Assembly: GCA_963764625.1 (NCBI GenBank)
Contig: CAVXTH010000006.1
Location: 586,029 to 650,028 of the forward strand
Length of the DNA: 64,000 nt
Direction: 5' to 3'
Source: Candidatus Krumholzibacteriota bacterium
Lineage (GTDB): Bacteria > Krumholzibacteriota > Krumholzibacteriia > JAJRXK01
Shown: positions 7,435-46,358 of the stretch, one piece after another
Numbering within the stretch: position 1 is the stretch's first letter
Layout: every line of letters starts with the position of its first letter
Translations under genes and position numbers: made by a program
Notes under the pieces: model-generated
What the model was told of the DNA's origin: nothing
Database searches by the model: none
The model's input: the letters and a program-made list of their open reading frames with translations, nothing else

Positions 7435-7965
7435 ATGATTTGCCAGCGATGCGGAAAGAGGCCCGCGGAAGTCCAATACACCGAGATGATCGGTGGCCAC
7501 AAGACGATGCAGTGGCTGTGCTCTCAATGCGCGCGCGAGGCCGGTCTGCTGGTTACCCTCAATCTCTCTTCCTTGACTCACGGTTCCACCGCGAAGCTCT
7601 TCTCGGGCGGGCAGGGCGCACCGGCCACGCTCCGCTGTCCCGAATGCGGAACCGACGCCGAGAGCCTGCGGCGCAGCGGACTGCTGGGATGTCCTCACTG
7701 CTACGAGGTTTTCCGCACGCAGCTCGAACCCCTCCTGCGAAGTGTTCACCACGCAACCGACCATCATCCGAGCGACGGCGGCGACGATTCGCTCAGCCGG
7801 CTGGAGCGAGTGCTGGAGTCTCTGCGGCGCGAGCTCAGCGAGTCGGTGCGCCGCGAGGAATTTGAACGGGCCGCCTCCATCCGCGACGAAATCCGCCGCT
7901 ATGAGAAGGAGAAGGCGGAACTCGCGAGTTCCCGGGAGGAAGAGGAGGGAGGAGGGGACGAATGA
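7435..7965 (+). CDS. mcsA: McsA-like activator of protein arginine kinase (two CxxC zinc fingers plus a UVR motif)
   Basis: CQRCGKRPA...CSQC and CPECG...CPHCY zinc-finger pairs, then a UVR-like EEFERAASIRDEIRRYE; immediately upstream of mcsB. Confidence 0.7.
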   Translation: MICQRCGKRPAEVQYTEMIGGHKTMQWLCSQCAREAGLLVTLNLSSLTHGSTAKLFSGGQGAPATLRCPECGTDAESLRRSGLLGCPHCYEVFRTQLEPLLRSVHHATDHHPSDGGDDSLSRLERVLESLRRELSESVRREEFERAASIRDEIRRYEKEKAELASSREEEEGGGDE

Positions 7966-9029
7966 GATTTGAAGAGATGGCCCACGCCCCGGCTCCCTGG
8001 CAGGTACAGGACGCTCCCGAGCGAGACATCGTGTTGAGCTGCCGCATACGCCTGGCGCGCAACCTGGAGGGGGAGTTTTTCCCCCATCTGTTGGGGGAAG
8101 ACGCGCTACGCAGTCTGAGGACCCGCATCCTCGAGGCGGCCTCGAACTGTCCCTGCGCGCAGGAGCCGGCGTCCTGGGCCATGGAGGAACTCGAGGAACT
8201 CGAGCGGCGTTTCCTCCTCGAACGGCACCTCGTCTCCCAGGAGCTGGTGGCCACGCCACTGGGGCGGGCGGTGGTGGTGAGCGGGGACGAGTCGCGGGGC
8301 CTCATGGTGAACGAGGAGGACCATCTGCGGATCCAGGCCTTCGGCCCCGGACTGAATCCAAAGGAAACCTATGATATTGCAGTACGTTTCGCGTCTGAGC
8401 TCGAGGAACACTTGACCTTTGCCCACAGCCCGCGCTTGGGCTACTTGAGTGCCTGCCCCACGAATTTGGGCACCGGGCTGCGCGCGTCGGTCCTGCTGCA
8501 CCTGCCCGGGCTCTCCCTCACGCAGGACCTGGAGAAGGTGTTGCATAGCCTGAAGGTGCTGAACTATACCGTACGGGGATTCTACGGCGAGGGAAGCGGG
8601 GCTCTGGGAGCGCTCTTCCAGGTGTCCAATTCGGCCACTCTGGGGCTCTCAGGGGCTCAGATCGTGGACGATCTGCTCCACCACCTCCGCAAGGTGATCT
8701 CCGTGGAGCGGGAGGCACGAGCCGTGCTTCTGCGGCGCGAGGGGAAGCGGATCGAGGACCGGGTCTGGCGCGCCTGGGGAATTCTCAACCACGCACGGCT
8801 CCTCAGCACGCGCGAGGCCTTCGATTTGCTTGGTGATGTACGGTTGGGGATGAACTTCCGTTTGCTCCCCGGGGTGGACGAAACGACCCTACGGTGTCTT
8901 CTTGTGACTATTCAGGGGGCGCACCAGGAGATCATGGCGCAGCGTAACTTGAAGGCTCCCCAGCGCGATGAGCGGCGAGCGAAATACGTTCGGCGCACGC
9001 TGGCAAAGGCTAGGAGAGACTCAGAATGA
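7962..9029 (+). CDS. mcsB: protein arginine kinase McsB (phosphagen-kinase family)
   Basis: Phosphagen kinase active-site signature [13 protein letters not shown]; 355 aa; lies between mcsA and clpC. Confidence 0.8.
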
Positions 9030-11503
9030 ACGACCGCTTCACCGAGAGAGTCCGCAAAGTCCTCTTTCTCGCCAGAGACGAGGCCGGACGGATGCAGCAC
9101 GACTACATCGGCACCGAGCACCTCCTCTTGGGAATCATCCGAGAAGGGGAGGGTATCGCGGCCCAGGCTCTCCAACGGCTCAACATCGGCTTCGATCAGA
9201 TCCAACAGGCAGTCGAGGACATCGTGACGGCGCAGAGTGGTACGCTCACGATCGGCGAGATCCCCTTCACCCCGCGAGCCAAGCGGGTTCTCGAACTCTC
9301 CATCGACGAAGCGCGCATGCACAATCACAACTACGTGGGCACCGAGCACTTGCTGTTGGCTCTCATCCGGGAAGGCGAAGGCGTGGCGGCGCGCGTGTTG
9401 AACGAACTCGGAGCTGACCACGACAAGGTCAAGAAGGAAGTGATGAAGCTTCTGGGTGGAACGGCAAAGGGCGGGACGGCCGCTGCGGGTACGCAGAAAA
9501 AGGAAACGCCGGTCCTGGATCAATTCGGCCGCAACCTGAGCCAGCACGCCCGCGAGGGGAAGCTCGATCCCACCATTGGCAGGGACAAGGAGATCGAGCG
9601 CGTCATTCAGATTCTCTCGCGCCGGAAGAAGAACAACCCGGTTCTGATCGGCGAACCCGGAGTGGGCAAGACGGCGATCGCCGAAGGGCTGGCCCAGACC
9701 ATCGTCGATGGACGAGCCCCCGAGCTCCTGAAAGACAAGGAGATCATCACGCTGGATCTGGCCAGCGTGGTTGCCGGCACCAAGTATCGCGGGCAATTCG
9801 AAGAACGGCTCAAGGCGATCATGAACGAGATTCACGAGAGCGACCACGTCATTCTCTTCATCGACGAGCTGCACACCATCGTCGGTGCCGGTGGGGCGGA
9901 GGGCGCCATCGACGCTTCGAACATGTTCAAGCCATCCTTGGCTCGCGGTGAGATCCAGTGCATCGGCGCCACCACTCTGGACGAATACCGAAAGTTCATC
10001 GAGAAGGACGGCGCTCTGGAGCGGCGATTCCAGTCGATCATGGTGAATCCTCCCAGCGAGGATGAGACCGTCGCGATCATTTTCGGATTACGGGACAAGT
10101 ACGAGCAGCACCATCAGGTCCACTTCACCGACGAGGCGATCCGCACCGCGGTGTACCTGAGTGTGCGCTACATCGCGAATCGGAGTCTGCCCGATAAGGC
10201 CATCGACGTGATCGACGAGGCCGGCAGCCGCGCCCGACTGGCCGCCTCCGCCGTGCCGGGTGATCTGCGCGAGCTGGAGAAGCGCATCGAGGAGCTCTCG
10301 GAAAAGAAGGAAGCCGCCATTCTGGGGCAGGAGTTCGAAAAGGCCGCCGGCTTCCGCGACGAGGAGAAGGAGCTCAGGATCCAGCTCGGCAAGCAGAGAA
10401 AGACCTGGTCGGAGCAGCGCAACGAGGTCAGGACCGAGGTGAGCGCGAAAGACATCAGCCGGGTCATCGCCGACATGACGGGCATTCCGGTGACCGAGGT
10501 CGAGGAGGAGGAGACCGAGAAGCTGCTCCGCATGGAAGACAGCCTCAGGGAGACGATCATCGGCCAGGAGGAAGCGATCTCGGCAGTCAGCAAGGCGATC
10601 CGCCGCAACCGCGCCGGTCTGCGCGATCCGCGACGGCCGATCGGTTCCTTCGTCTTCTTGGGACCCACCGGGGTGGGAAAGACGGAAGTGGCCCGCCAGC
10701 TCACCAAGTTCCTCTTCGACGATTTGAAGAACATGATCCGGATCGACATGTCGGAGTACATGGAACGGTTCTCGATCTCCCGACTCGTGGGTGCCCCTCC
10801 GGGCTACGTGGGATATGACGAGGGGGGAATCCTCACCGAGAAGGTGCGGCGGCAGCCCTACTCCGTCGTCCTTCTGGACGAGATCGAGAAAGCTCACCCC
10901 GACGTATTCAACTTGCTCTTGCAAGTGCTCGAGGACGGTATCCTCACCGATTCCTTCGGCCGCAACGTCGACTTTAAGAACACGGTTCTCATCATGACGA
11001 GCAACGTGGGAAGTCGGCGAGAGGCTCTGCGCAAGAGCGTGGGTTTCGGAGCTCCGGGCAAGGGCGGAGACGAGAAGGCCATGCGGGCCAACGTCACCGA
11101 GGATCTGAGGAAGACCTTCAGCCCCGAATTCCTGAATCGCATCGACGAGGCCATCATCTTCCACCCGCTGGACCGCACTCACATGACCAGCATCCTGGAA
11201 ATCCTGCTGCGCGAGATGGAGACCCGGATGGAGAGCCTGGACATCAGCCTGAACTACTCCCAGGAGGCCAAGGAGTTCTTGGTCTCCATCGGATTCGACC
11301 CCGAACTCGGCGCTCGGCCTCTGCGGCGCGCACTGCAGAGGTACGTCGAGGATCCCCTGAGCGAGCAACTTTTACGCGGCAACATTCGCAGCGGCAACAA
11401 GGTCGACGTCCGAGTGGTCGATGGAAATCTGCGCTTCGAAGTCGTGACGGACGACCCGAAAGGGAAACCCTCGGAGGCAGAGCCAGCCGGCAATGCCTCC
11501 TGA
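9026..11503 (+). CDS. clpC: ATP-dependent Clp protease ATP-binding subunit ClpC
   Basis: Two Clp_N repeats ([17 protein letters not shown] / [17 protein letters not shown]), two AAA+ modules (GEPGVGKTA; GPTGVGKTE), UVR linker; 825 aa. Confidence 0.9.
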
Positions 11504-21370: not shown

Positions 21371-21685
21371 GGAAGTCCTCCCCTGCACGGCACCTGTGGC
21401 CGTGAAGTTGGAAAAAGCCAATCGAGACCCAAAAGCGCCGTCCCGGGTCACGTCTCCTGGGCAGCAAGGCGTATGCCACCGGAACTGGGGATCTAATCGG
21501 ATTGATTCCAAGGGGATACAGCGCTGTACGAGCTCGCGGCGCGGCGCCACTGCGGCAGCTTGCGCAGATCTCGCCTCCAAGGGGCTGCAAGCTGCAATTC
21601 GGGACTCGGGGTCCTCGATGCTTCCCCTTTCGCCATCGAGCGCCCTTTGGCCTACTCTATGGGCGCTAATAGCGAAAGGATCCCG

Positions 21686-23320
21686 ATGCGATCGCTCAGC
21701 TCCTCGGTGGATGTCCTGGTCATCGGAAGCGGACTGGCTGGCCTGCGGGCGGCCCTGAGCCTGGCCAAGACCGCCAAAGTGCGCCTGGTGACTAAGGCAC
21801 GCGACCACCACAGCAACACCAATCGGGCCCAGGGCGGCATCGCGGCGGTGTTGGGCTCCGATGACGATTTCGCCCTCCATGTCGCAGATACGCTCACGGC
21901 CGGTGCTGGCCTCTGCCACGAAGATCGGGTCCGGGCGATGGTCGAGAACGCTCCCCGTCTCATCGATGGCTTACTCGCGGTCGGAATGGACTTCGATCGC
22001 AAGGCGGATGGAAGCTACGAGATGGGTCGCGAGGGGGGGCACAGCCGCCGGCGCGTGGTCCACTCCGGGGACTTCACCGGCCGGGCGGTGGAGCAGTCCA
22101 TGCTGGCCGCAGTGCGCGCCCATCCTTCAGTCCAGGTGCTGGAAGATCATTTCGCGATCGATCTTCTCAAAGATGAGAAGGGCCGCGTGGTGGGCGCGTT
22201 GGTCTGGGATGAACGCGGCGGCGAGGCCCTGGCCAATCTCGCGCAGTACACCGTCCTGGCCACCGGCGGGTCGGGAAAGGTCTACCGCTACACCACCAAT
22301 CCCGACATCGCGACCGGGGACGGCGTGGCCATGGCCTGGCGGGCGGGTGCCACGGTGGGGAATCTCGAATTCGAACAGTTTCATCCTACTTGTCTCTACC
22401 ACCCATCGGCCAAGAGTTTCCTCATCAGCGAAGCGGTACGGGGAGAGGGGGCGGTCCTGCGCACCCTCGATGGCGAGGCCTTCATGCCTCGCTATCATGA
22501 ACTTGCGGATCTGGCGCCGCGGGACATTGTGGCTCGTGCAATCGATACCGAGATGAAAGCGCGCGGCGACAAACACGTCTTGCTCGATGCCACGGTCATC
22601 CCCGCCGAATTGGCCTCTCGGCGGTTCCCCAACATTCGCGCCCGGTGCCTGGAGTTCGGAATCGATCTCACGCGCGACATGATTCCGGTGGTGCCAGCGG
22701 CGCACTACGCCTGCGGAGGAGTGGTGACGGACCAACGCGGCGCAAGTGACCTCGAGGGTCTCTTCGTGGTGGGGGAGTCAGCCCTCACCGGCATCCATGG
22801 AGCCAACCGCCTGGCTTCCAACAGTCTGCTCGAGGCTCTCTACTACGGCGAGAAGGCGGCGGAGGAGATTACCCTGCGACTGGCGAACGAATCTCGTCCC
22901 ATCAAGTCGGCCATCATTCCCGATTTGGGCAGTGAGGCGCAGGAGCCCACGCCCTTGCGACACGACTGGGAGACCGCTCGTAAGACGATGTGGAACTACG
23001 TGGGAATCCAGCGCGATCTGGATCGGCTCGGGGTGGCGCAGCGGCGCATGGACGACATGGCGGCCGAGGCGGAGCGCTCGTACGGGACGCAACGGCCGAG
23101 CGTCGACCTGTTGGAACTGAGAAACGTCACGCTTCTAGGAAGCCTCGTGGTGCGCTGCGCCACCTTTCGCAAGGAGAGCCGTGGGCTCCACGCTCTGGCG
23201 CAGTATCCGGACGTGAACGATGAAGAATTCTTGGGCGACACCTGCATTCGCCTGAACGAAGAAGCCCACCTTCGACCCTTGAAGGCGGAGAAAGCCAATG
23301 CGACTCGCGACCGCGTTTGA
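21686..23320 (+). CDS. nadB: L-aspartate oxidase
   Basis: FAD-binding DVLVIGSGLAGL; succinate-DH/fumarate-reductase flavoprotein-like body; about 544 aa. Confidence 0.8.
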   Translation: MRSLSSSVDVLVIGSGLAGLRAALSLAKTAKVRLVTKARDHHSNTNRAQGGIAAVLGSDDDFALHVADTLTAGAGLCHEDRVRAMVENAPRLIDGLLAVGMDFDRKADGSYEMGREGGHSRRRVVHSGDFTGRAVEQSMLAAVRAHPSVQVLEDHFAIDLLKDEKGRVVGALVWDERGGEALANLAQYTVLATGGSGKVYRYTTNPDIATGDGVAMAWRAGATVGNLEFEQFHPTCLYHPSAKSFLISEAVRGEGAVLRTLDGEAFMPRYHELADLAPRDIVARAIDTEMKARGDKHVLLDATVIPAELASRRFPNIRARCLEFGIDLTRDMIPVVPAAHYACGGVVTDQRGASDLEGLFVVGESALTGIHGANRLASNSLLEALYYGEKAAEEITLRLANESRPIKSAIIPDLGSEAQEPTPLRHDWETARKTMWNYVGIQRDLDRLGVAQRRMDDMAAEAERSYGTQRPSVDLLELRNVTLLGSLVVRCATFRKESRGLHALAQYPDVNDEEFLGDTCIRLNEEAHLRPLKAEKANATRDRV

Positions 23321-24116
23321 CGGCACCTTCTATCCCGCCGAGCCTGACGCTCTGGCGGAGGTGGTCGATCATTTCCTCGACCGCGCTCCGGCAGCTCCCG
23401 AGGGAAAGATCCTGGGAGCGGTCGTCCCGCACGCGGGCTACATCTATTCGGGAATGACCGCGGGAATGGCCTTCGGCGCCTTCCGCGGGCTAAAGCCCGA
23501 AGCAGTGATCCTTCTGGGCCCCAGTCATCGCGTCCGCCTGCGGGGGATTCGGGTGCTTCATGCAGACGGTTTCGAAAGCCCCCTGGGCACGCTCCCCGTC
23601 GATGCAGAACTCAGGGCCGAACTGCTCATCCTGTTGGGGCCCGGCGCGGAAGGTCCCGCGTTTTGTGAGCACTCGGTCGAGGTGCAGCTTCCCTTTCTTG
23701 CCCGCGCATTGCCCCAGGTCCCGGTGATCGAAATCGTCTTCGGCCCCTGGGAGGAACGAGATATCCAGCGCGTGGCGAAAGCCCTTCTGGCGCTGCAGCG
23801 AAGACACGAGATCTTGGTCGTGGCCAGCAGCGATCTCTCGCACTATTACGATCACCATCGGGCGAAGGTTCTGGACCAGCGATTCCGCGAACTGCTGCTC
23901 CACGAAGACAGCGTTCGCCTGGGGGAGGCTCTGAGAAGGGGAGAGACGGAGGCCTGTGGCGCGGGACCAGTTCTCACCCTCATGAATCTCACCGAGGCGC
24001 TGGGGGGCCGTTTCGAGGCAATTCACCAGTGCGACAGCAGCCAGGCGAGCGGTGACGAGAGCCAGGTCGTCGGATATATTTCCGCTTTGGCCCTACTTCC
24101 CGGGGAGACCGGATGA
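23298..24116 (+). CDS. MEMO1-family protein (AmmeMemoRadiSam system protein B-like)
   Basis: Conserved AVVPHAGYIYSGMTAG and DLSHYY motifs of the MEMO1/extradiol-dioxygenase-like family; 272 aa. Confidence 0.7.
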   Translation: MRLATAFDGTFYPAEPDALAEVVDHFLDRAPAAPEGKILGAVVPHAGYIYSGMTAGMAFGAFRGLKPEAVILLGPSHRVRLRGIRVLHADGFESPLGTLPVDAELRAELLILLGPGAEGPAFCEHSVEVQLPFLARALPQVPVIEIVFGPWEERDIQRVAKALLALQRRHEILVVASSDLSHYYDHHRAKVLDQRFRELLLHEDSVRLGEALRRGETEACGAGPVLTLMNLTEALGGRFEAIHQCDSSQASGDESQVVGYISALALLPGETG

Positions 24117-24853
24117 AGCCATGGTACGAAACGGCGTTTGGCGACTTCTACCTCGAACTCTACTCCCACCGAGATCTAGCGGAGGCCGAAAAGGTCCTCG
24201 GCCTGGCGTTCGCGCACGATGAGCTGCGAGACAAAACGGTGATCGACGTCGCATGCGGAGCCGGCCGCTACCTCGAAGAACTGCAGAAGCGAGGGGCGTG
24301 GGCGATGGGAGTGGATCTCTCATCTACCTTGCTGCGCGCGGCCAAGGAACACGACTCTCGCCTGCGCCTGGCGCGTGCCGACATGCGGGTCCTTCCCCTT
24401 CTTGATCACGCAATGGACTGGGCGCTGTCTCTGTTTACTTCTTTCGGCTACTTCGAGAGCGTGGAGGAGCATCGAGAGCTGGCGGCCGAACTCACTCGCG
24501 TGGTCAAGAGAGGAGTGATCGTGGATATTCCCAATCCACGCTTTCTCGAAAGTGCGCTGGCGCCGGAGAGTTCACGGGTGGTGGCGAATCACCGCATCGA
24601 GGAGCGGCGTCGTCTTCTGAATGATCCGCGTCGCGTAGTGAAGCGAGTGCGGATTCATGACCTCAAAGGCGTACTCGTCCAAGAATACGAGGAGCGCGTC
24701 ATGCTCTTCTCGCAGGCGACTTTCGTGGAGTTGTTCGAGGCAGCCGGTCTGTCGGTGACGGGAATGTACGGCGACTATGAAGGTTCTCCGTTTCGCGAGG
24801 AGGAAAGCCCTCGGCAACTGGGACGCTTCGAACGGGTAGGGAGCCGCGTATGA
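24113..24853 (+). CDS. class I SAM-dependent methyltransferase (candidate N-methyl-bacillithiol methyltransferase)
   Basis: SAM-binding motif I VIDVACGAGRY; 246 aa; translationally coupled to bshC. Confidence 0.6.
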   Translation: MKPWYETAFGDFYLELYSHRDLAEAEKVLGLAFAHDELRDKTVIDVACGAGRYLEELQKRGAWAMGVDLSSTLLRAAKEHDSRLRLARADMRVLPLLDHAMDWALSLFTSFGYFESVEEHRELAAELTRVVKRGVIVDIPNPRFLESALAPESSRVVANHRIEERRRLLNDPRRVVKRVRIHDLKGVLVQEYEERVMLFSQATFVELFEAAGLSVTGMYGDYEGSPFREEESPRQLGRFERVGSRV

Positions 24854-26448
24854 GCGGGGGACTATTCACCGATTCCAACCCCCTGGTTGCGTTCGAGGCT
24901 TCGCCTGGAATGTCCGAGTACGCGAAGCGTTGGCTGGAGGCAGACGAGTCGCTGCCCGCGCCGGCCAGTCTGCGTCTCTACGCGGAGGCTCCACGATCTC
25001 GATCGGGCTCCGCCTTCCAGGACGCCGCGTTCTCGGCCGAGCTGCGCAACCGTCATCACGCTCTGAAGGCCAGCGAGGCCTCGCTGGCGAACGTGGGGGC
25101 GCTGGCGAAGGGGGCTCCCTGCGTCATCACCGGGCAGCAGCCCAGCTTGCTGGGCGGACCGCTGTACTGTGCGTGGAAACTCGCGGGAGCGGTCGGGCTG
25201 GCGGCTTCGCTCTCGCGCGAGCTCGGCCGCGAAGTCGTCCCCGTGTATTGGTGCGGCGCGGATGACTCGGATTTCGAGGAGGCTCGCCGGGCCTGGCTCT
25301 GGAATTCCGAGTCCGGAGCGGTGCGGGCGGAACTCGCCAAGGCGCTGGCGCGCCCCGGGGAGATGGTGGGTTCTATTTCGGGAGCCGAAATCGAAACGGT
25401 GGAGCGCAACGCACTCCGAGCGATGGGCGCGAATTCCCACGGCGAACTCGTGAAGTGGTTCGAGACGATGGAACCGTCTTGGGATCTGGGCGAGCGCAGT
25501 CAGGCGCTCTATCTGAAGCTCTTCGCGCAAGCCGGTTTGGTGGTGGTCGACGCGCGTTCGGGGCGCTTGCGCGAGCTGGGACGCGAGCTCATGACCCGCT
25601 ACGCGCAGGTACGCGCCGAAGTGGCTTCGGCGGTGGAGAAGCGAGGAGAAGCGTTGCGGCGCGCGGGTCTGTCGGTGGCACTCCATCCGGCCGCCATCCA
25701 CAGTGGACTCTTTCGAGTGCGCGAGGGACGCAGAGAAAAACTTGAACCACAGGAGATCCTGCCCGCGTGCGAGGCCAACGACGACCTCAGTCCGGCCGTT
25801 CTATTGCGTCCGGTGCTCCAGGACGCGTTGTTGGCTCCCATCGCCGCCGTCCTTGGTCCCTCCGAGCTGCACTATCACGCGCAGCTCGCGCCGGTCTACG
25901 AGATTCTGGCGGTAGAAGCGGCGTCGCCGGCGCTGCGGCCGCAGTTGACTTTCCTGCCACCGGACCTTGCCTGGCCCGCTTCTATGGCCCGTCAGAGAGC
26001 GCTCCTGCAGGGCGGAGACACCGCGCGACAGGTCCTGGGCGTCCTGTCGATTCCCCACGACTGGGAAGAGGCGAGGCACAAGCTGAGCGACTCGATCGAG
26101 GCGGCGCTACGGGAGTTCGAAGCGACTCTCGGAGAGGTGGCGGAACAGTCGAAGATCTCCCGCACCCTGCAGAAGCTGCGGGAGGCCGGGGAGAGAATCG
26201 AGGAGACGCTCGCCGCGCAGTCGTTGAAGACCAGGAGCGAGAAAGATCGCTCCCTTTTGCTCGTGCCCGATCTCCTCGGCCTTCGCGGAGCCCCCCAGGA
26301 GAGGACCTACTCGGCGGTGGTGGCGTGGGAGTGGTTCGGCAGCTCCTTCGTGGACCACCTAAAAGAGCTGGCAGGCCGCTACGCACTCGACCTGAAAGAA
26401 GGCCGGGCACCAATCTACCGGGCGCGCATGCCCAGGGAGAAGACATGA
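24850..26448 (+). CDS. bshC: putative bacillithiol biosynthesis cysteine-adding enzyme BshC
   Basis: 532 aa, close to the BshC/YllA size of about 540 aa; operon position immediately upstream of bshB-bshA. Family assignment rests on context and size, not on motifs I can verify. Confidence 0.5.
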   Translation: MSGGLFTDSNPLVAFEASPGMSEYAKRWLEADESLPAPASLRLYAEAPRSRSGSAFQDAAFSAELRNRHHALKASEASLANVGALAKGAPCVITGQQPSLLGGPLYCAWKLAGAVGLAASLSRELGREVVPVYWCGADDSDFEEARRAWLWNSESGAVRAELAKALARPGEMVGSISGAEIETVERNALRAMGANSHGELVKWFETMEPSWDLGERSQALYLKLFAQAGLVVVDARSGRLRELGRELMTRYAQVRAEVASAVEKRGEALRRAGLSVALHPAAIHSGLFRVREGRREKLEPQEILPACEANDDLSPAVLLRPVLQDALLAPIAAVLGPSELHYHAQLAPVYEILAVEAASPALRPQLTFLPPDLAWPASMARQRALLQGGDTARQVLGVLSIPHDWEEARHKLSDSIEAALREFEATLGEVAEQSKISRTLQKLREAGERIEETLAAQSLKTRSEKDRSLLLVPDLLGLRGAPQERTYSAVVAWEWFGSSFVDHLKELAGRYALDLKEGRAPIYRARMPREKT

Positions 26449-27188
26449 ACCGCAGACCCCGCGAAGCTCGCGTCGACGCTCTCTTCCTGTCTCCGCACCC
26501 GGACGACGTCGAGTTGTTTTGCGGCGGCACCGTGGCCAGGCTGGTGGAGCTGGGGCACGAGGTCGCTCTCACCGACCTGACGCGCGGAGAGATGGCGAGC
26601 AATGGCACGGCAGAGGAGCGACGAGAAGCGAGTCTTCGCGCCGCGAGAGCCCTCGGAGTGGCGGGCGAGCGCCGCGTGCTCGACTTTCCCGACGGGGGGG
26701 TAAGCCCGGGCGATCCCCACCAGCTCGAGGTTATGGTCGAGCTGCTGCGCGAACTCCGTCCGCGCGTGCTCTTTCTACCCCATCGCGTCGATCGACACCC
26801 AGACCACGTGGCGGCCGGTCTCCTGGCCCGGCGTGCGAGCTTCTTTGCGGGAGTCCACCGTTTCGAAGCTGAGGGCGAACCCTACCGCCCCGAGCTCGTG
26901 GTCGCCTACCCGTGTCATACTCCGACCCGGGTTTCGTTCACGGTGGACGTGAGCGGTGTGATCGAGAAACGACGGCAGGCCATCGCCTGTTACGAGAGTC
27001 AGTTCCAGGCCGGTCCGAAGTCCAAAGCGACTCTCATCAATCACCCGGGCTTTCTCGCCGCGCGTGAGGCGCGCCTGCGTGAGTGGGGATTCGCTTGCGG
27101 AGTCGAGTTCGCCGAGGGATTCGTTCTGGAAGAACCGCTTCTTCTCGCCGATCCCCTGGCAATTCTCGGCCGCGGGAGAGGGCAATGA
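26445..27188 (+). CDS. bshB: PIG-L family N-acetylglucosaminyl-malate deacetylase BshB
   Basis: PIG-L/LmbE motifs (LFLSPHPDDVELFCGGT, HPDH); 247 aa; overlaps the bshA start. Confidence 0.75.
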   Translation: MNRRPREARVDALFLSPHPDDVELFCGGTVARLVELGHEVALTDLTRGEMASNGTAEERREASLRAARALGVAGERRVLDFPDGGVSPGDPHQLEVMVELLRELRPRVLFLPHRVDRHPDHVAAGLLARRASFFAGVHRFEAEGEPYRPELVVAYPCHTPTRVSFTVDVSGVIEKRRQAIACYESQFQAGPKSKATLINHPGFLAAREARLREWGFACGVEFAEGFVLEEPLLLADPLAILGRGRGQ

Positions 27189-28336
27189 ACGCGACGAAAT
27201 ATCGCATCGGGATGACTTCCTTCGCCGCGCAGGGCGGAAGTGGAGTGGTGGCCAGCGAATTGGGATTGGCTCTGGCCTCCCGTGGTCACGAAGTTCACTT
27301 CATTGCCAATGCTCTGCCGGTACGCCTGCGCGAGTTCGAGCCCAAGGTGTTCTTTCACGAGGTGCAGACGGTTCAATACCCGGCCTTTCCCCACGCGCCG
27401 TATACCCTGGCGCTGGCCACCAAGATGACGGAGGTCGCGCGCTACCACGATCTCGAGATTCTGCACGTACACTACGCGATTCCCCACGCGGCGAGCGCTT
27501 ACCTCGCCCAGAAGATGTTGGCTCCTAGCGGAATCAAAGTGGTCACGACGCTTCACGGCACCGACATTACTCTGGTAGGTCAAGAGCCGAGCTTCTGGCC
27601 GCTGACTCAGTTCTTGATCGAGCAGAGCGACGTGGTCACCGCGGTGAGCCACGACCTGGCGCAGCAAACTCGGCAGATCTTTCGCACCGACCGCGAGATT
27701 CGGGTCATCTACAATTTCGTCGACCCGGGACATTTTCGGCCCCGTCCCGACCTGAAGCGAAACAACCCGCTGGCCCCCGCCGGGGAGAAAGTGTTGCTCC
27801 ACGCGAGTAATCTCCGGCCGGTGAAGAACGTCGAGACGGTTGTGAGGGTGTTCGCCCGCGTGGTGGCCGAAGTCAAGTGTCGCCTGGTCATCGTGGGAGA
27901 CGGGCCGGAAAGGGGACCGGCGGAGCGACTCGCGGAGAAGATGGGAGTTTGCGACAGGGTTACCTTCTTGGGCGCGCGGGAATCGATGGAGGAGCTCATG
28001 GCCATGGCCGACGTGCTGCTGTTGCCGAGCGAGCACGAGTCGTTCGGGCTCGTCGCGCTCGAGGCGATGAGTGCGCAGACGCCGGTGGTGGCCTCCAAGC
28101 GCGGCGGTCTGCCCGAACTCATCGAAGATGGGGAAACCGGCTTTCTCCACGAACCCGAGGACATCGAAGGGCAGAGCGCCTCGGTCCTCCGGCTGCTCCG
28201 CGATGAGGCCCTGGCCAAGAAAATGGGAGAGCGGGCGCGAGAGGTGGCCAAGGAACGCTTTTGCACCGATTGTATTCTGGACTCGTATCTCGATATGTAT
28301 CATGAGATTAGAGATGGGTCATCCTCCGTGGGTTGA
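27185..28336 (+). CDS. bshA: N-acetyl-alpha-D-glucosaminyl L-malate synthase BshA (GT4)
   Basis: N-terminus KYRIGMTSFAAQGGSGVVASELGLALASRGHEVHFI closely resembles the BshA consensus; E-x7-E GT4 C-terminal domain. Confidence 0.8.
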   Translation: MNATKYRIGMTSFAAQGGSGVVASELGLALASRGHEVHFIANALPVRLREFEPKVFFHEVQTVQYPAFPHAPYTLALATKMTEVARYHDLEILHVHYAIPHAASAYLAQKMLAPSGIKVVTTLHGTDITLVGQEPSFWPLTQFLIEQSDVVTAVSHDLAQQTRQIFRTDREIRVIYNFVDPGHFRPRPDLKRNNPLAPAGEKVLLHASNLRPVKNVETVVRVFARVVAEVKCRLVIVGDGPERGPAERLAEKMGVCDRVTFLGARESMEELMAMADVLLLPSEHESFGLVALEAMSAQTPVVASKRGGLPELIEDGETGFLHEPEDIEGQSASVLRLLRDEALAKKMGERAREVAKERFCTDCILDSYLDMYHEIRDGSSSVG

Positions 28337-28388
28337 CAGAACGCGCCGCTGCTCTAGACTCTCTTGAAGCCCACGGGAATTTTCGAGG

Positions 28389-28796
28389 ATGGTAGAGGTG
28401 AGCGAGAAATCAACGAGCAACCGGGATGTGATCTCCCGCCTAGAGAAGCACGCCGAGTCTGGAAAGTACTGTCTTGCCGCTTACGATTTCGTGTTGCGCG
28501 GACTGGACCAGACGATTCGTGCTCTACCAGAGGTTCGTCACGTCAACGGCCAGGAGCTCATGGAGGGGTTGCAGGCATTCGCCAAGGAACAATTTGGTCC
28601 CATGGCCAAGCACGTGCTCAATTCCTGGGAGATCACGCGCACCGAGGATTTTGGTGAAATCGTGTTCGAACTCGTCGATCAGGGCATTCTGCGCAAGACG
28701 GAGGAAGACCGTCCCGAGGATTTTGCCGATCGCTTCGATTTCGACGTGGTTTTCGAACGGGACTACTACAAAGACCACAAGATCCCGAGCGCTTGA
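28389..28796 (+). CDS. conserved hypothetical protein (135 aa, acidic C-terminus)
   Basis: Clean ORF with an RBS; no recognisable motif. Confidence 0.5.
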   Translation: MVEVSEKSTSNRDVISRLEKHAESGKYCLAAYDFVLRGLDQTIRALPEVRHVNGQELMEGLQAFAKEQFGPMAKHVLNSWEITRTEDFGEIVFELVDQGILRKTEEDRPEDFADRFDFDVVFERDYYKDHKIPSA

Positions 28797-39914: not shown

Positions 39915-42299
39915 ATGGTGTCCACAGAGAAGCAGCAGCACCAACCGGAGATGTCCATGGAGCTCGGTCGAATTCCGACGAGCATGGCCATACTGCCCAT
40001 CAGTGAGGCCGTGGTGTTTCCGTACATGATGGTGCCCTTGGTTCTGTCCGATCCCAATCTCATTCGTCTCGCCGACGACGCGCTTGCCGACGCGAAAGTC
40101 CTGGGCACCTTCGCGCAGCTTCCGGCCAGGAACGAAGAAGAGGAGGAACCGCCGTTCGGCGAGGACATCTACGAGGTCGGCACCGCGGTGGCGATCCAGA
40201 AGATGCTGCGCTTTCCCGACGGGAGCATGCGTCTCTTGGGGCAGGGCGTCGCGAGAATCCGCCGCAAACGCTACAAATCGACCGAGCCGTATCTGGTCGC
40301 CGATGTCGAGGTGCTCGAGGAGCTTCCCGCCACCGATACGCGAACCATCGCCCTGATGCGGGGGGTTGCGAACAACTTCATCAAGATCGTCGAATCGAGC
40401 GAAGCGCTGAGCGATGAGCTGAGAGTGGTCGCGATGAACATCGACGATCCGGGACGTCTCGCGGACATGGTTGCGACGAACCTGGAGATTTCCGTCGAAG
40501 AGAAGCAGGAGGCGCTGGAGATTCTTCATCCGCGGAAGCGGCTGGAGATGCTGAGCAAGGTCGTGCTGCGCGAGTTGGAGGTGGTGGAGCTCGGGGAACG
40601 CATCCAGAGCCGCGTGCGCAAGGCGATGGACAAGGACCAACGGGAGTACTACCTGAGGCAGCAGCTCAAGGCGATCCAACGTGAGCTGGGTGACGTCGAT
40701 CAGAGTACGGTCGAACTGGACGAGTTGAGAGAGGCGATCGAGGAGGCCGCGCTGCCCGACTCCGTGCGGGAGGTCACGGTCAAGGAATTCGGACGGCTCG
40801 CGCGCATGAGTCCAGGTGCGAGCGAATACACAGTCTCGATGACCTACATCGATTGGATCCTCGATCTGCCGTGGCTGAAGTCCACCGAGGACAACCTGAA
40901 TCTCAAGCGGGCGGAGAACATTCTCGAACGCGATCACTACGGGCTCCACGACGTGAAGGAACGCATCCTGGAGTTCCTCGCGGTCAAGAAGCTCAAGAGC
41001 GACATGCGCGGACCCATCCTCTGTCTCGTCGGCCCTCCGGGCGTTGGCAAGACGAGTCTGGGCAAGTCGATCGGCGAGGCGATCGGGAGGAATTTCTATC
41101 GCCTGAGCCTGGGAGGAATGCGAGACGAAGCCGAGATCCGCGGCCACCGGCGCACGTACGTGGGCGCAATGCCCGGTCGAATTCTGCACGGCATCAAGAC
41201 CGCAGGATCGAGGAATCCTCTCATCATGCTCGACGAGATCGACAAGCTGGGCAGTGATTTTCGGGGCGATCCGGCCAGCGCGCTTCTCGAAGTGCTGGAT
41301 CCAGCCCAGAACAACACCTTCACCGATCACTACCTCAATATGCCCTTCGATCTCTCTGACGTGCTTTTCATTTGCACCGCGAACATGTTGGACACCATCC
41401 CCAGGCCGCTTCTCGACCGTATGGAGATCATTCACATCGCGGGATACACGCGCCTCGAAAAGTTGGAGATCGCCAAGCGTTACTTAGTGCCGCGCCAGGT
41501 GACCGAGAACGGTCTCACGCGGGGCAAGATTCGCTTCACCGACGCGTCGATCACCCACATGATCACCGAGTACACGGCCGAGGCGGGAGTTCGAAACTTG
41601 GAGAGGACGATCGGGAGCATTTGCCGCAAAGCCGCACGCGGTTTCGCGACGGGCAAACGCAAGCCGGTGAACATCTCGGTGAAGAACCTCGAAACCTATC
41701 TCGGAGTTGCCCACTTCGCCGAGGACGAGAGAAAGAGCCATCCGATGATCGGAGTCACGGCTGGCCTCGCCTGGACCTCGGTGGGAGGGCGGATTCTTTT
41801 CGTCGAGGCGGTGGAGATGCCGGGTAATGGAAATCTGCGGCTGACCGGACAACTGGGAAGCGTGATGCAGGAATCGGCGCAGGCCGCATTGAGCTACATC
41901 CGCTCGCGCTACTCGAAGACCGAAGAGCAAGCGAAGTGGTTCAGCACTCATGACATCCACATCCATCTTCCTGCCGGGGCCGTTCCCAAGGACGGACCCA
42001 GCGCGGGGGTGGCAATCGCGACCTCGCTGATGAGCCTCTTCCGCAAGATCCCGGTTCACCACCGGGTTGCCATGACGGGCGAAATCTCACTGACGGGGGA
42101 GGTGATGCCTATCGGTGGTCTCAGCGCCAAGATCCTCGCCGCCCATCGAGTGGGCATGCGGGAGGTCATCATCCCGGCCGCGAACGAGAAGGACCTCGAG
42201 GACCTCCCTGAGGAGGTGACCGGGGCGATCGATTTCCACCCGGTCTCCTGGGTGGAAGAGGCTTGGAAAGTTGCCCTCACCCGAGACTTTCAGGAGTAG
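39915..42299 (+). CDS. lon: ATP-dependent Lon protease
   Basis: LON N-domain; AAA+ (GPPGVGKTSLGKSIA); S16 protease domain with catalytic DGPSAG; 794 aa. Confidence 0.9.
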   Translation: MVSTEKQQHQPEMSMELGRIPTSMAILPISEAVVFPYMMVPLVLSDPNLIRLADDALADAKVLGTFAQLPARNEEEEEPPFGEDIYEVGTAVAIQKMLRFPDGSMRLLGQGVARIRRKRYKSTEPYLVADVEVLEELPATDTRTIALMRGVANNFIKIVESSEALSDELRVVAMNIDDPGRLADMVATNLEISVEEKQEALEILHPRKRLEMLSKVVLRELEVVELGERIQSRVRKAMDKDQREYYLRQQLKAIQRELGDVDQSTVELDELREAIEEAALPDSVREVTVKEFGRLARMSPGASEYTVSMTYIDWILDLPWLKSTEDNLNLKRAENILERDHYGLHDVKERILEFLAVKKLKSDMRGPILCLVGPPGVGKTSLGKSIGEAIGRNFYRLSLGGMRDEAEIRGHRRTYVGAMPGRILHGIKTAGSRNPLIMLDEIDKLGSDFRGDPASALLEVLDPAQNNTFTDHYLNMPFDLSDVLFICTANMLDTIPRPLLDRMEIIHIAGYTRLEKLEIAKRYLVPRQVTENGLTRGKIRFTDASITHMITEYTAEAGVRNLERTIGSICRKAARGFATGKRKPVNISVKNLETYLGVAHFAEDERKSHPMIGVTAGLAWTSVGGRILFVEAVEMPGNGNLRLTGQLGSVMQESAQAALSYIRSRYSKTEEQAKWFSTHDIHIHLPAGAVPKDGPSAGVAIATSLMSLFRKIPVHHRVAMTGEISLTGEVMPIGGLSAKILAAHRVGMREVIIPAANEKDLEDLPEEVTGAIDFHPVSWVEEAWKVALTRDFQE

Positions 42300-42301
42300 A
42301 C

Positions 42302-43363
42302 GTGCCGCCTTCGTTTCTTTCGCGGGTTCTGGGGCGCCCCACCAACGGGGCGGTCGCTAGCAAAGACGCCTTCCGTCTGCCGGGCGCTCTGTTCGACGGC
42401 GTACGTGTGCTCCTCATCGACTCGGGCGATTACACCGATCTGCTCTTCGCCATGCCTCTGATCGAGGAGATCCACGACCGCTTTCCCAATTCGAAGGTGG
42501 GGCTCGTCAGCGACGACCGGGCCCATTATCTCGCCCTTTCGAGCGGTGCATTTCACGAATTGGTTGTGTATTCCCCCGAACAGTTGAACTTGAACTCGAA
42601 GGGCTTCGAAAACCTGGCCGAGGCGGTGCATGCCGAGCCCTGGGACGTGGCGATCCTCCTGGGCCGGGGACCCGATCAGGCGCGGGAGGAGTTGGCTCTG
42701 GCCAGCGGGGCCCAGCTCCGGGTAGGGGCGGCGCACGCGAAGAGCTACCCGCGGATCAACTGCGCGGTGCGCGCCACTCGCGAGGCCCACTACCCGTATC
42801 GGCGCACCGCGACCTGGGGCAAGCTCTTCGGCCTTCCCCTCGACCACGCGCCCCTGCACTGGCCGTTGCCGGATTCCAAGGTACGCCAGGTCGCTCAACT
42901 GGTGCACTTCAACAAACCGCGCAAGGACGAGCTCCTCATCGGAGTCGATCCGGGGCAGGGCAAGGTAGGCACTCTGTTGGGGGCGGAGAACCTGGCCTTT
43001 TTGGCCAACCATTTGGGGAAGCGAATTCGCTCCAAGACATTGGTGCTCTCGGCGGACGAGAACACCGAAAGAGTGGCCGAATTCAGCGCACTCCTCACTC
43101 TGGAGAAACTGGAGCTGCCCCGTCCCACGCTGCTGGAAACAGTACTCCTCTTGAGCCAGTGCGAGGTCCTGGTGGCCGGAAACACCGATCTATTCCATTT
43201 TGCCGTCGCCCTGGGAGTGCCCGCGCTTGGCCTCTTCACCTCGCGCGATGGAAAGCGTTGGCGTCCCGACGAGGGAGAGCGCGTGGAGATTCTCGAACTC
43301 GAAGATGGCGGAAATCTCGAACTCTCCACCGTGTCGACTTGCTTCGATCGTCTTATCGGATGA
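42302..43363 (+). CDS. glycosyltransferase family 9 (LPS heptosyltransferase-like)
   Basis: GT9 architecture (RVLLIDSGDYTDLLFAMPLIEEI ... VAGNTDLFHFAVALGVPALGLF); GTG start with AGGAG RBS. Confidence 0.65.
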   Translation: MPPSFLSRVLGRPTNGAVASKDAFRLPGALFDGVRVLLIDSGDYTDLLFAMPLIEEIHDRFPNSKVGLVSDDRAHYLALSSGAFHELVVYSPEQLNLNSKGFENLAEAVHAEPWDVAILLGRGPDQAREELALASGAQLRVGAAHAKSYPRINCAVRATREAHYPYRRTATWGKLFGLPLDHAPLHWPLPDSKVRQVAQLVHFNKPRKDELLIGVDPGQGKVGTLLGAENLAFLANHLGKRIRSKTLVLSADENTERVAEFSALLTLEKLELPRPTLLETVLLLSQCEVLVAGNTDLFHFAVALGVPALGLFTSRDGKRWRPDEGERVEILELEDGGNLELSTVSTCFDRLIG

Positions 43364-43417
43364 TCGACCGAGTCGAAATCCTTCCGCCCGACTCTCAACG
43401 AAAGAATCGCCGCGAGT

Positions 43418-45361
43418 ATGCGTGACTGGCTCCGACTGCTGGGAATGTTGCGTTCCTATCGACGCCAGAGCGCCATGCTGGTCGTAAGCATTTTCTTGGC
43501 CTCGGTGCTTTCCACCGTCGGGATCACCTTCATCTCACCGCTCTTGCGAATCCTCTTCCTCGACCAACCGGCAACGCCTGCGGTGGAGATGGTCCACAGC
43601 GCCGGTCAAGAGGCAAACCCCAACGGTGCGGCGGTGCGGGAGGAGACGGCCAAGCCGAACCCGTCGAACGCGATTCCGGTTCCCGAGAAACTCTCGCGTG
43701 CGCGGCACGGAATCCAGACCTGGGTCGAGAGTCATCTGTACAAAGGCGATCGGGGCGCGATGCTCTTGCGCGTCTCGGTGTTGCTCTTCTTGCTCTACCT
43801 GGCCAAGAATCTCTTCGCCTTCGCCCAGGGAGGTCTTACCGCCATCCTCGAGCAGAAAGTCATCTACGACATTCGGCAGAACCTGTTCCAGGCCATCCAG
43901 AGCATGCCGTTGCGATACTTCTCCCAGGAGAGAACCGGCTATCTGATGAGTCGGGTGATCATCGACGTCGATATGATGCGCGGAGGGCTTGTGGGCTGCG
44001 CCTCGCAGATCCTGTCCAACACGATCATGGTCACTTTCGCCCTGGTGCTGGTGCTGTGGTGGAGCTGGCAACTCTCCTTGGCCACTTTGATCATTGTTCC
44101 GCCCAACATCCTGCTCATGGGCTATCTCAGCAAGAAGATGCGCAAGGGAAGCCATCGGACGCAGGAATCGATGGGAGCGCTCGCCACGGTCTTGCAGGAA
44201 ACCATCGCGGGAATTCGCATCGTGAAAGCATTCACCATGGAAGCGGCGGAGAAGTTGCGCTACGGAAAGGAGAATCAGCGCTACTACAAGGCCTACACCA
44301 AGATGAAAGTGCTCGAGGCCCTCTCCTCGCCAGTGAGCGAGGTGTTGGGAATCGCCACCGCGGTCGTGATCCTCGCTTTCGGCGGTCACCTCGTTCTCGC
44401 CGGAAGGCTGCGCCCCGATCTTTTGGTGGCGTTTCTCGGCGTCATGCTCTGGGTCATCGGTCCCATCAAGAACCTCATCAAGGTGAACAGCACCCTGCAG
44501 CAGAGCCTGGCTGCGGCCCGACGGGTGTTTCTCATTCTCGACTCGGAGAAAGAAGAGCTCAACGAGAACGGACTTCGAGAGTTCGACGGCCCCCGCCAGG
44601 CGATCGTGTTCGACCAGGTCTCGTTCGACTATCGCAACGACGTGGCGGTGTTACGCGACATTTCGCTTACGATTCCCGCGGGGAGCACGCTGGGAATCGT
44701 GGGACCCTCAGGAGCGGGCAAGTCGACCCTGGTCGATCTCATCCCACGCTTCTACCATCCCAGCGCGGGCCGGATCACTCTTGACGGCGTTAATCTGGAA
44801 GACATCTACCTTCCCACGCTGCGGTCGCTGGTGGGGGTGGTGACGCAAGAGGTCATCCTCTTCAACGATACCATCTCTTCGAACATCTCCTACGGTTCCT
44901 CGAATGCCACCCGCGAGGCCATCATCGCGGCCGCGAAGGCCGCGAACGCGCATGATTTCATCAGCGAGTTTCCCGAGGGCTACGAGACGACCGTGGGGGA
45001 GAGAGGAACGCAGCTCTCCGGAGGCCAGAGGCAGCGGATCGCGATCGCGCGGGCGATCCTCCGCGACCCACCAATTCTCATCTTCGACGAAGCAACCAGT
45101 TCCCTGGACACCGAGAGCGAAAAGCTGGTGCAGGAAGCGATCGAGAGGTTGGTGGAGGGACGCACCACGATCGTGATCGCGCACCGTCTTTCGACCCTGG
45201 TGCGCGCCGACAGTATCGTGGTGCTGGAGGACGGCCGCATCGTGGAGGAGGGTGTGCACGAGAGTCTGCTCGAGCATCAGGGCGTCTACCGGAGGTTGTA
45301 TGAGCTCCAGGACAGCGGGCGACCGACCAAGCCTGGCCCTTCTCCCGAACTGGCTGGGTGA
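43418..45361 (+). CDS. msbA: ABC transporter permease/ATPase (MsbA-like lipid A/LPS core exporter)
   Basis: 6-TM ABC exporter domain plus NBD (GPSGAGKST, LSGGQRQRIAIARA, ILIFDEATS); located inside the heptosyltransferase cluster. Confidence 0.75.
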   Translation: MRDWLRLLGMLRSYRRQSAMLVVSIFLASVLSTVGITFISPLLRILFLDQPATPAVEMVHSAGQEANPNGAAVREETAKPNPSNAIPVPEKLSRARHGIQTWVESHLYKGDRGAMLLRVSVLLFLLYLAKNLFAFAQGGLTAILEQKVIYDIRQNLFQAIQSMPLRYFSQERTGYLMSRVIIDVDMMRGGLVGCASQILSNTIMVTFALVLVLWWSWQLSLATLIIVPPNILLMGYLSKKMRKGSHRTQESMGALATVLQETIAGIRIVKAFTMEAAEKLRYGKENQRYYKAYTKMKVLEALSSPVSEVLGIATAVVILAFGGHLVLAGRLRPDLLVAFLGVMLWVIGPIKNLIKVNSTLQQSLAAARRVFLILDSEKEELNENGLREFDGPRQAIVFDQVSFDYRNDVAVLRDISLTIPAGSTLGIVGPSGAGKSTLVDLIPRFYHPSAGRITLDGVNLEDIYLPTLRSLVGVVTQEVILFNDTISSNISYGSSNATREAIIAAAKAANAHDFISEFPEGYETTVGERGTQLSGGQRQRIAIARAILRDPPILIFDEATSSLDTESEKLVQEAIERLVEGRTTIVIAHRLSTLVRADSIVVLEDGRIVEEGVHESLLEHQGVYRRLYELQDSGRPTKPGPSPELAG

Positions 45362-46358
45362 TTTGGTGATGGCCTTGCCGGCTCTACGGTGTCTCCAGGA
45401 GGAGGGACCGGTAGTGGGCGTGGGCGCGCCGGCCCTGCTGGAGCTACTCGAGGATCTCGGCGCGGTCGATGCGAGCGTGCGTTACGAGCGCCGCGGCGCC
45501 GACCGGGGCCCGCGGGGTCTGTGGCGCACCGCGCGGCGGTGCGCGCGCTTCCATCCGCGCAGGGCCTTGATCTTTCCGCCCTCCTTTCGCGCGGCTCTGT
45601 TGGCCTTTCTCAGCTCGTGCCCTCATCGACGCGGTCATCCGGTCGACGGACGGCGGTTCCTGTTGAGCGATCCCTATCCGCAGCCGAGCCCGCCGCGCAG
45701 CCGGCATCAAGCCGAAGTCTGGTGGGCCATGGCGAAGGGGGTGGAGCTGGACGAGACGCCTCCGCAAGCAGCGCCCCTCGTTCCAGGAAAGGGCTCGCGA
45801 AGAGCTCTTGGCGCCCTGCGCGCGCGGATGAAGCGGCTGGCCGCACCCGGGCGCTACGCGGTGCTTGCGCCCGCGGTCCGCTATGGGCCAGCTAAGCAAT
45901 GGCCAGCCAATAACTTCGCTGTATTATCTCAGAAGCTAGTTGAAGAGATGAATCTGCAGGTGGTGGTGGTCGCCGGGGCCGGAAGCGAGGAAGCGGGGGT
46001 GGCGGAGGCGGTGGAGCACGCGGCCGCGGTGGTGAATCTGGCCGGACAGACCGATTTGTTGGCCCTGAGTGGATTGCTCCATGAGGCCGCGCTCTTCGTG
46101 GGGAACGACAGTGGTCCGGCGCACCTGGCGGCCGCGCTGGGGACGCCCACGGTGACGATTTTTGGTTCGACGAACCCGATCTGGACCGCGCCGCGGGGAG
46201 AACGGGTGAGAATCGTGGGTCCCCATCCGGTGCCGTGCAGCCCGTGTTACTTGAAGAGCTGCCCCATCGGTCTGCCCTGCCTCGAGGAGTTGGGGGTGGA
46301 GCAGGTGTTTCAGGAAGTTCTCGAACTCGTGCGCGGAGAGAGTGCAAGCGATGTCTGA
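45300..46358 (+). CDS. glycosyltransferase family 9 heptosyltransferase (WaaF/WaaC-like)
   Basis: LALLPNWLGDLVMALPALRCL N-terminus; C-terminal VGNDSGPAHLAAALGTPTVTIFG GT9 signature. Confidence 0.75.
   Translation: MSSRTAGDRPSLALLPNWLGDLVMALPALRCLQEEGPVVGVGAPALLELLEDLGAVDASVRYERRGADRGPRGLWRTARRCARFHPRRALIFPPSFRAALLAFLSSCPHRRGHPVDGRRFLLSDPYPQPSPPRSRHQAEVWWAMAKGVELDETPPQAAPLVPGKGSRRALGALRARMKRLAAPGRYAVLAPAVRYGPAKQWPANNFAVLSQKLVEEMNLQVVVVAGAGSEEAGVAEAVEHAAAVVNLAGQTDLLALSGLLHEAALFVGNDSGPAHLAAALGTPTVTIFGSTNPIWTAPRGERVRIVGPHPVPCSPCYLKSCPIGLPCLEELGVEQVFQEVLELVRGESASDV

Follow-up and report, generated by a model that had tools for sequence, protein, structure and literature searches.

Four overlapping genes in a 64,000-nucleotide stretch of DNA from a Candidatus Krumholzibacteriota bacterium (GenBank assembly GCA_963764625.1, contig CAVXTH010000006.1, positions 586,029 to 650,028 of the forward strand; this whole stretch is called the window, and coordinates are counted from its first letter) very probably form a self-contained biosynthetic cassette for N-methyl-bacillithiol (N-Me-BSH). 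The predicted cassette, nmbA-bshC-bshB-bshA (24113-28336), joins the genes of bacillithiol (BSH) synthesis to the gene of an S-adenosylmethionine (SAM)-dependent methyltransferase, and is preceded on the same strand by nadB and a Memo-like gene. The gene string is as follows:

21686-23320, plus strand: nadB, L-aspartate oxidase, 544 aa (NF006567, 638.7 bits against a cut-off of 629)
23298-24116, plus strand: Memo-like gene, AmmeMemoRadiSam system protein B family, 272 aa (TIGR04336, PF01875)
24113-24853, plus strand: nmbA-like gene, class I SAM-dependent methyltransferase, 246 aa, predicted bacillithiol cysteine-N-methyltransferase
24850-26448, plus strand: bshC, cysteine-adding enzyme of bacillithiol synthesis, 532 aa (TIGR03998, PF10079, 4WBD)
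26445-27188, plus strand: bshB, BshB1-type GlcNAc-malate deacetylase, 247 aa (TIGR04001, PIG-L domain)
27185-28336, plus strand: bshA, N-acetyl-alpha-D-glucosaminyl L-malate synthase, 383 aa (TIGR03999, GT4 domains)

All four junctions from the Memo-like gene to bshA are 4-nt ATGA overlaps, each with a GGAG-type Shine-Dalgarno-like sequence 7-10 nt 5' of the ATG, and the 3' end of nadB overlaps the start of the Memo-like gene by 23 nt; nadB is probably the first gene of a co-directional string that ends with bshA. An initial annotation of this DNA had described five genes at 23298-28336, and we recovered them as plus-strand open reading frames (ORFs) with the same coordinates and with 4-nt overlaps at every junction. 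Its proposal of a complete low-molecular-weight-thiol cassette in one unit agrees with the four overlapping genes, their family matches and the NmbA-type methyltransferase. A 4-nt overlap alone is weak evidence of a functional link, because such overlaps are frequent across the window, for example in mcsA/mcsB/clpC and Minf_1886/mobA.

The pathway that we propose is modelled on the characterised pathways of Bacillus subtilis and Chlorobaculum tepidum. BshA would join UDP-N-acetylglucosamine (UDP-GlcNAc) and L-malate to give N-acetylglucosaminyl-malate (GlcNAc-Mal), BshB would remove the acetyl group to give glucosaminyl-malate (GlcN-Mal), BshC would add cysteine to yield BSH, and the NmbA-like enzyme would transfer a methyl group from SAM to the amino group of the cysteine in reduced BSH. 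The cassette would be translationally coupled through its overlaps and transcribed, probably, from upstream of nadB, with nadB and the Memo-like gene carried in the same transcriptional string as backbone genes and not as members of the pathway. No other BSH-related gene (bacilliredoxin, BSH-disulfide reductase, BSH transferase or similar) was seen in the 64-kb window.

Assignment of BshA, BshB and BshC

BshA matched TIGR03999 over the full model length with 493.9 bits (equivalog cut-off 273.7), and GT4 domains were detected in it. BshB scored 233 bits with the BshB1 model TIGR04001 (equivalog cut-off 182.5), 34 bits only with the BshB2 model, and 91.5 bits with the PIG-L domain. BshC matched TIGR03998 with 211.9 bits (E 1.9e-62, profile positions 34-520 of 529), which is below the NCBIfam equivalog cut-off of 265.8, and the BshC Rossmann-like domain PF10079 with 171.7 bits, well above the cut-off of 27. 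The protein matches BshC models only and no other family, B. subtilis BshC (4WBD, E 1.2e-16) is the only solved structure that it matches, and a 532-aa member of its 90%-identity cluster has been named YllA/UPF0747 by the Joint Genome Institute (JGI). Judged by these matches, the 532-aa protein is a divergent yet clear BshC and not a non-member, in line with its earlier placement in the YllA/BshC family.

The methyltransferase as a predicted NmbA

Among profile models, the methyltransferase matched generic class I SAM methyltransferase domains only, together with sub-threshold UbiE/MenG matches. In a PDB-wide phmmer search, the best solved-structure match was CtNmbA (9RI2; 113.5 bits, E 1.1e-31, residues 2-236 of 246), and the second was DesVI (3BXO) with 42.5 bits. 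The structure in 9RI2 was determined from crystals of C. tepidum NmbA, and both CtNmbA and the Paenibacillus polymyxa homologue (PpNmbA) N-methylate reduced bacillithiol with SAM in vitro (PMC12719100). Pairwise comparison gave 34% identity over 245 aa (E 6e-38), with about 95% of the 246-aa protein aligned to the 266-aa CtNmbA; these values, including the E-value from the pairwise comparison, lie within the published thresholds for NmbA orthologs (BLAST E <= 1e-20, coverage > 80%, identity > 25% and similar length; PMC12719100). In a neighbour-joining tree with one outgroup (DesVI), the window methyltransferase and its clade grouped with CtNmbA, Paenibacillus, Brevibacillus and many homologues from metagenome-assembled genomes (MAGs), and a long branch set DesVI apart from this NmbA group. 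The initial annotation had suggested an NmbA-type enzyme comparable to Chlorobaculum NmbA (CT1040), as opposed to one that clusters with unrelated small-molecule methyltransferases, and the structure match, the ortholog thresholds and the tree placement all support this assignment.

Conserved residues point in the same direction. Motif I of the protein is VIDVACGAG, an AxGxG variant of which the NmbA form is VLDIAxGxG, and an SFGYF block holds the pair equivalent to Y134/F135 of CtNmbA, the aromatic pair that stabilises the SAM adenine (PMC12719100). Residues F108, S110, F111, G112, Y113 and F114 are invariant in alignments of 15 and 36 sequences. Of the CtNmbA residues whose roles come from docking only, W16, R70 and K198 correspond to W4, R52 and K177 in the window protein, the positions of W20 and H31 hold A8 and S18, and the adjacent H32 is kept as H19. 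An AlphaFold2 model (pLDDT 92.5) contains the expected N-terminal and inserted beta-strands, and a Foldseek search of the PDB with this model placed two 9RI2 chains on top by E-value (E 2e-19), with TM-scores of 0.68-0.75. However, the fold evidence is weakly discriminating, because AlphaFold models do not reproduce the crystal topology of the NmbA Cap domain, which comprises four strands that form a narrow "basket" over the active site (PMC12719100).

It could be argued that the cassette makes plain bacillithiol only and that the methyltransferase acts on another small molecule, on a BSH conjugate or on a pathway intermediate, which we consider unlikely. The NmbA paper itself cautions that NmbA homologues standing alone in the similarity network may methylate other acceptors, the identity to CtNmbA is just 34%, W20 and H31 are not conserved, and several natural-product methyltransferases score similarly in the fold search. 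The JGI name "UbiE-like" might be added to these points, but a UbiE/MenG identity was rejected, with 35-44 bits against cut-offs of 158-327. Moreover, NmbA leads the sequence matches by about 70 bits, and the identity to CtNmbA is in the range of that of the Paenibacillus homologues (36-38%), among which PpNmbA is active (PMC12719100). The genomic context also bears on this alternative: bshA, bshB and bshC all lie directly 3' of the methyltransferase gene, that is, they co-occur with it in one genome, and direct bshC linkage across many phyla, as described below, is hard to explain with a BSH-unrelated substrate.

Linkage of nmbA and bsh genes in other lineages

Species-representative genomes were scanned with an alignment of methyltransferase homologues, the best 80 loci were kept, and the window proteins were run against these loci by tblastn. 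The closest methyltransferase among the matches listed had 40% identity to that of the window, and none of these matches was a close relative of the window. In 47 of the best 80 loci, bshC lies directly 3' of the methyltransferase gene on the same strand. Among these 47 are all 40 Gemmatimonadota-labelled loci and one MAG of the Bacillota, and the remaining six bear the labels Calditrichaeota, Anaerolineae, Zixiibacteriota, Aminicenantes, Eisenbacteria and Planctomycetota. The bshC-linked loci span seven different phylum-level labels, as given by the submitters. The tightly packed methyltransferase-bshC-bshB-bshA order was also found in locus L023 (labelled Anaerolineae) and locus L072 (labelled Planctomycetota), and locus L049 (labelled Eisenbacteria) has methyltransferase-bshC-bshA. 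In Paenibacillus and related isolates, the methyltransferase gene is unlinked to bshC.

The loci of other lineages (Gemmatimonadota from L007 onwards, L023, L072 and L049) share with the window the gene order, the strand and the tight spacing or overlaps, with methyltransferase identities of 34-41%. Unlike the window, they lack Memo or nadB upstream, and most of the Gemmatimonadota loci consist of the nmbA-bshC pair only. Since the linkage to bshC recurs across phyla, the genomic context argues strongly for bacillithiol as the substrate of this methyltransferase family. Operons or gene neighbourhoods of nmbA are not mentioned in the two NmbA papers (PMC6282198, PMC12719100); consecutive accession numbers in the supplement of the 2025 paper (PMC12719100) hint at nmbA-bshC clusters.

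The contiguous bsh arrangement is unsurprising in itself, because bshC was first identified partly via its occasional co-localisation with bshA (PMC5790435). The initial annotation had set the contiguous C-B-A genes of the window against the unlinked genes of Firmicutes; the contiguity stands, but the implied rarity was overstated, as many lineages link nmbA to bshC and other phyla have this four-gene order too.

Conservation and loss of the cassette within the clade

The order nadB-Memo-methyltransferase-bshC-bshB-bshA is kept, where length allows, in contigs with methyltransferase identities of 47-100% to the window, and altogether in about 10 distinct contigs of the clade, with identities down to 40%. 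The longer contigs also share the flanks, with lpx genes upstream and Minf_1886, mobA, moaC and exbBD-tonB downstream. A Memo-based metagenome scan retrieved only four close relatives, all with the arrangement of the window. Locus L091, from a more distant relative (NadB 51%, Memo 43% and methyltransferase 40% identity), keeps the full string from nadB to bshA and has different downstream genes. The BshC gene call of L091 (8555-9730) is 391 aa long and ends directly before bshB, so that this BshC apparently lacks the C-terminal ~140 residues found in the window protein.

Locus L090 (GCA_029932915.1, JAOZPE010000004.1; 5388-8854) reads nadB-Memo-Minf_1886-moaC, without nmbA-bshC-bshB-bshA. Its flanks are otherwise syntenic and as similar to the window as those of other clade members (NadB 75%, Memo 56%, Minf 68%), and mobA is also absent, separately from the four cassette genes. 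The four genes are thus present or absent as one unit in the clade. The junction in L090, between ...CCGG|ATGA and ...GG|TTGA, looks like a clean excision, and loss of the cassette in L090 would be the more parsimonious direction, because L091 keeps the full string.

Since the order recurs in about 10 clade contigs and in MAGs labelled as other phyla, the arrangement is not due to chance. That the cassette genes are mere neighbours in a gene-dense single-strand region, neither expressed nor selected as a unit, has next to no likelihood in our assessment. Nearly all identified genes of the 64-kb window do lie on the plus strand, many unrelated pairs overlap, and no promoter or terminator signal bounds the 5' end of the block. 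Against this, the same order is found with different flanks under other phylum labels, the four genes are jointly present or absent within one clade, and all four encode consecutive steps of one pathway.

Some observations weigh against the interpretation as an N-Me-BSH cassette. In addition to the BshC score below its equivalog cut-off, the uncharacterised structure 3D2L has a higher TM-score (0.80-0.83) than 9RI2 with the methyltransferase model, which means that the fold comparison barely discriminates. Furthermore, the 40 of 47 bshC-linked loci labelled Gemmatimonadota are not independent of one another, and we infer co-transcription of the cassette from the gene overlaps only.

The Memo-like gene

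The protein encoded upstream of nmbA matched TIGR04336 with 225.2 bits (cut-off 26) and PF01875 with 158 bits, and in the alignment to human MEMO1 (3BCZ) the PHAGY, GPSH, SSDxxH and CG motifs are kept. By these sequence criteria, the gene encodes a standard AmmeMemoRadiSam protein B. Compared with the AmmeMemoRadiSam system (TIGR04335/04336/04337) and MEMO1, the window protein shares the protein-B model match and the conserved His, His, Asp/His and Cys motifs; its gene is placed between nadB and nmbA, and no AMMECR1 or radical-SAM partner was found among the ORFs scanned across the 64-kb window. Homologues outside the clade (35-43% identity) are fused to AMMECR1 or directly preceded by it. In two such loci, L093 (4438-5837) and L094 (4429-5870), an overlapping AMMECR1 gene is followed by the Memo homologue and then by a DUF2520 Rossmann-like gene, with no adjacent radical-SAM gene.

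The adjacency of Memo and nmbA is confined to the clade of the window. No Memo gene was found near the bshC-linked nmbA outside the clade (0 of 47 loci), and the lone Memo match within 10 kb among the best 80 loci is about 5.7 kb away, in locus L073, which has no bshC within the locus. In contrast, nadB and Memo stand side by side in all clade loci that extend far enough upstream of Memo. Memo travels with nadB and not with the cassette, because L090 keeps nadB-Memo without the four cassette genes. The earlier suggestion that the Memo-like gene takes part in thiol/redox chemistry was therefore not upheld, given its absence from nmbA/bsh clusters outside the clade and its place beside nadB in the cassette-less L090; the gene is probably translationally coupled to nmbA without being part of the thiol pathway.

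We also considered whether the Memo-like protein might be a fifth, hitherto unrecognised component of the thiol system, for instance as a redox enzyme that depends on a metal, as a partner that handles metals together with BSH/N-Me-BSH, or as a demethylase. The stop codon of Memo and the start codon of nmbA share an ATGA, the two genes stay adjacent throughout the clade as far as L091 in spite of the divergence of NadB (51%) and Memo (43%) and the different downstream context, and the MEMO1-aligned motifs are intact. Furthermore, MEMO1 is a Cu(I)-binding protein (PMC9477392) and BSH has a high affinity for Cu+ (PMC5790435), no enzyme is known to demethylate N-Me-BSH, and the usual AMMECR1 partner, present beside more distant homologues, is missing beside the window gene. 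However, the upstream synteny (lpx genes, nadB) is also conserved, so that adjacency cannot count as separate evidence, 4-nt overlaps are commonplace in the genome, and both the 0/47 count and L090 argue against such a role, which we regard as very doubtful. A stand-alone Memo that, without its usual AMMECR1 neighbour, is coupled to nmbA across a deep clade might conceivably have been recruited to BSH/N-Me-BSH chemistry, although we give this little credence; if true, it would offer a first entry point to the function of the bacterial Memo family.

Boundaries and leader of the gene string

Two elements were noted at the ends of the string:

28333-28360, plus strand: promoter-like motif TTGACA-N16-TAGACT, 10/12 consensus positions, with the bshA stop codon in the -35 hexamer
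21555-21563 and 21587-21595 (arms), plus strand: inverted repeat GCAGCTTGC / GCAAGCTGC in the nadB leader, with a 23-nt loop

The motif GGTTGACA-N16-TA(G/C)ACT lies just 5' of the Minf_1886 gene in the window and in the clade members L004 (12247-12274), L087 (~10594-10621) and L090 (~7809-7836), and in every case the stop codon of the preceding gene falls within the -35 hexamer, that of bshA in three genomes and that of Memo in L090. The motif after bshA thus marks the 3' boundary of the cassette. The gene that follows it, of the Minf_1886 family (TIGR04138, 125 bits; 28389-28796, plus strand), has a syntenic position in every clade member, and in the window it shares a 4-nt overlap with mobA; the NCBI model name links this conserved hypothetical family to Planctomycetes and Verrucomicrobia.

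No conserved internal promoter was found within the cassette, and because of this the transcription start is probably upstream of nadB. A sigma-70-like site within the 3' end of the Memo gene (24052-24080) was discarded, since conserved GYxSA codons coincide with its -10 hexamer and relatives do not keep it; the site is a by-product of these codons. Terminator-like sites numbered 10, against 6.3 +/- 2.2 expected, which is within the chance range. The arms of the nadB-leader inverted repeat are essentially invariant in 4 of 5 clade members, with changes in L089 that break two pairs, and the loop varies. A permissive scan of the leader gave no Rfam match, and the repeat may serve the string from nadB to bshA as an operator or an RNA hairpin.

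Relation to known thiol systems

In C. tepidum, the pathway consists of BshA (CT0548), BshB (CT1419), BshC (CT1558) and NmbA (CT1040) (Hiras 2018, PMC6282198; Hammerstad 2025, PMC12719100). The same four enzyme families occur in the window, where the methyltransferase has 34% full-length identity to CtNmbA, with the AxGxG form of motif I, SFGYF and the equivalents of W16, R70 and K198 in common and with A8 and S18 in place of W20 and H31. The four C. tepidum genes have widely separated locus numbers, whereas those of the window form one overlapping block in the order nmbA-C-B-A. In B. subtilis, bshB1-bshA belong to the mgsA operon and bshC stands with panE (PMC5790435). The BshA, BshB1-type and BshC orthologues and the predicted three-step chemistry are the same in the window; the Bacillus genes are split between two operons with unrelated genes and without nmbA, whereas all steps and the methylase are contiguous here.

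The N-Me-BSH pathway has already been predicted in >1,700 species, and the window cassette is a compact version of this known pathway in an uncultivated lineage, which leaves the current understanding of the pathway unchanged. Judging from the methods of the published NmbA survey, in which validly published phyla only were searched, Candidatus Krumholzibacteriota stood outside it (PMC12719100). The cassette extends predicted N-Me-BSH use to an uncultivated diderm lineage that surveys limited to validly named phyla would miss. In addition, the position of nmbA directly before bshC under seven phylum-level labels supports the NmbA assignment independently of sequence similarity, and this cross-phylum linkage, together with the presence/absence pattern in the clade that sets Memo apart from the cassette, is a useful by-product of the analysis. 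With overlapping genes and defined boundaries, the 4.2-kb cassette would also be a convenient single fragment for heterologous N-Me-BSH production.

Other features of the window

Genes are densely packed in the window, a chromosomal stretch in which polA/coaE, prfB, lysS, a lolE-like gene with an ABC ATPase gene, mcsA-mcsB-clpC, bamA, skp and lpx genes precede nadB and the cassette, and mobA/moaC, exbBD-tonB, a tolB-like gene, lexA, lon, several heptosyltransferase genes and polysaccharide-export genes follow. The host is an uncultivated diderm that bears lipopolysaccharide (LPS). Its closest named BamA homologue, with 50% identity, carries the label Candidatus Krumholzibacteriota, and most other BamA homologues are labelled simply "bacterium", which gives a soft hint that the host lies in or near this candidate phylum. 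No RNA genes were found in the whole window by an Rfam scan at gathering thresholds or by ARAGORN.

Four further observations concern genes distant from the cassette. One ORF at 683-2764 (plus strand) carries a DNA_pol_A domain (residues 90-412) and, C-terminal to it, a CoaE (dephospho-CoA kinase) domain (480-655); it could be a real fusion, or polA and coaE could appear joined through an overlooked stop or a frameshift. The prfB gene for release factor 2 (2764-3865, plus strand) appears to carry the classical programmed +1 frameshift: a short frame runs from its ATG at 2764 to CTT TGA C (2830-2836), a Shine-Dalgarno-like AGGAGG (2822-2827) lies 5' of the frameshift site, and the PCRF/RF-1 domains run on in the +1 frame to 3865. 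At 7435-11503 (plus strand), mcsA-like (UVR motif), mcsB (ATP:guanido phosphotransferase) and clpC genes follow each other with 4-nt overlaps in this LPS/BamA diderm; the McsA/McsB/ClpC protein-arginine kinase and quality-control module is best known from Firmicutes. Finally, four paralogous family-9 (heptosyltransferase-type) glycosyltransferase genes at 42263-49032 (plus strand) are interleaved with genes for an MsbA-like ABC exporter and a HAD phosphatase, which suggests an elaborate LPS core region.

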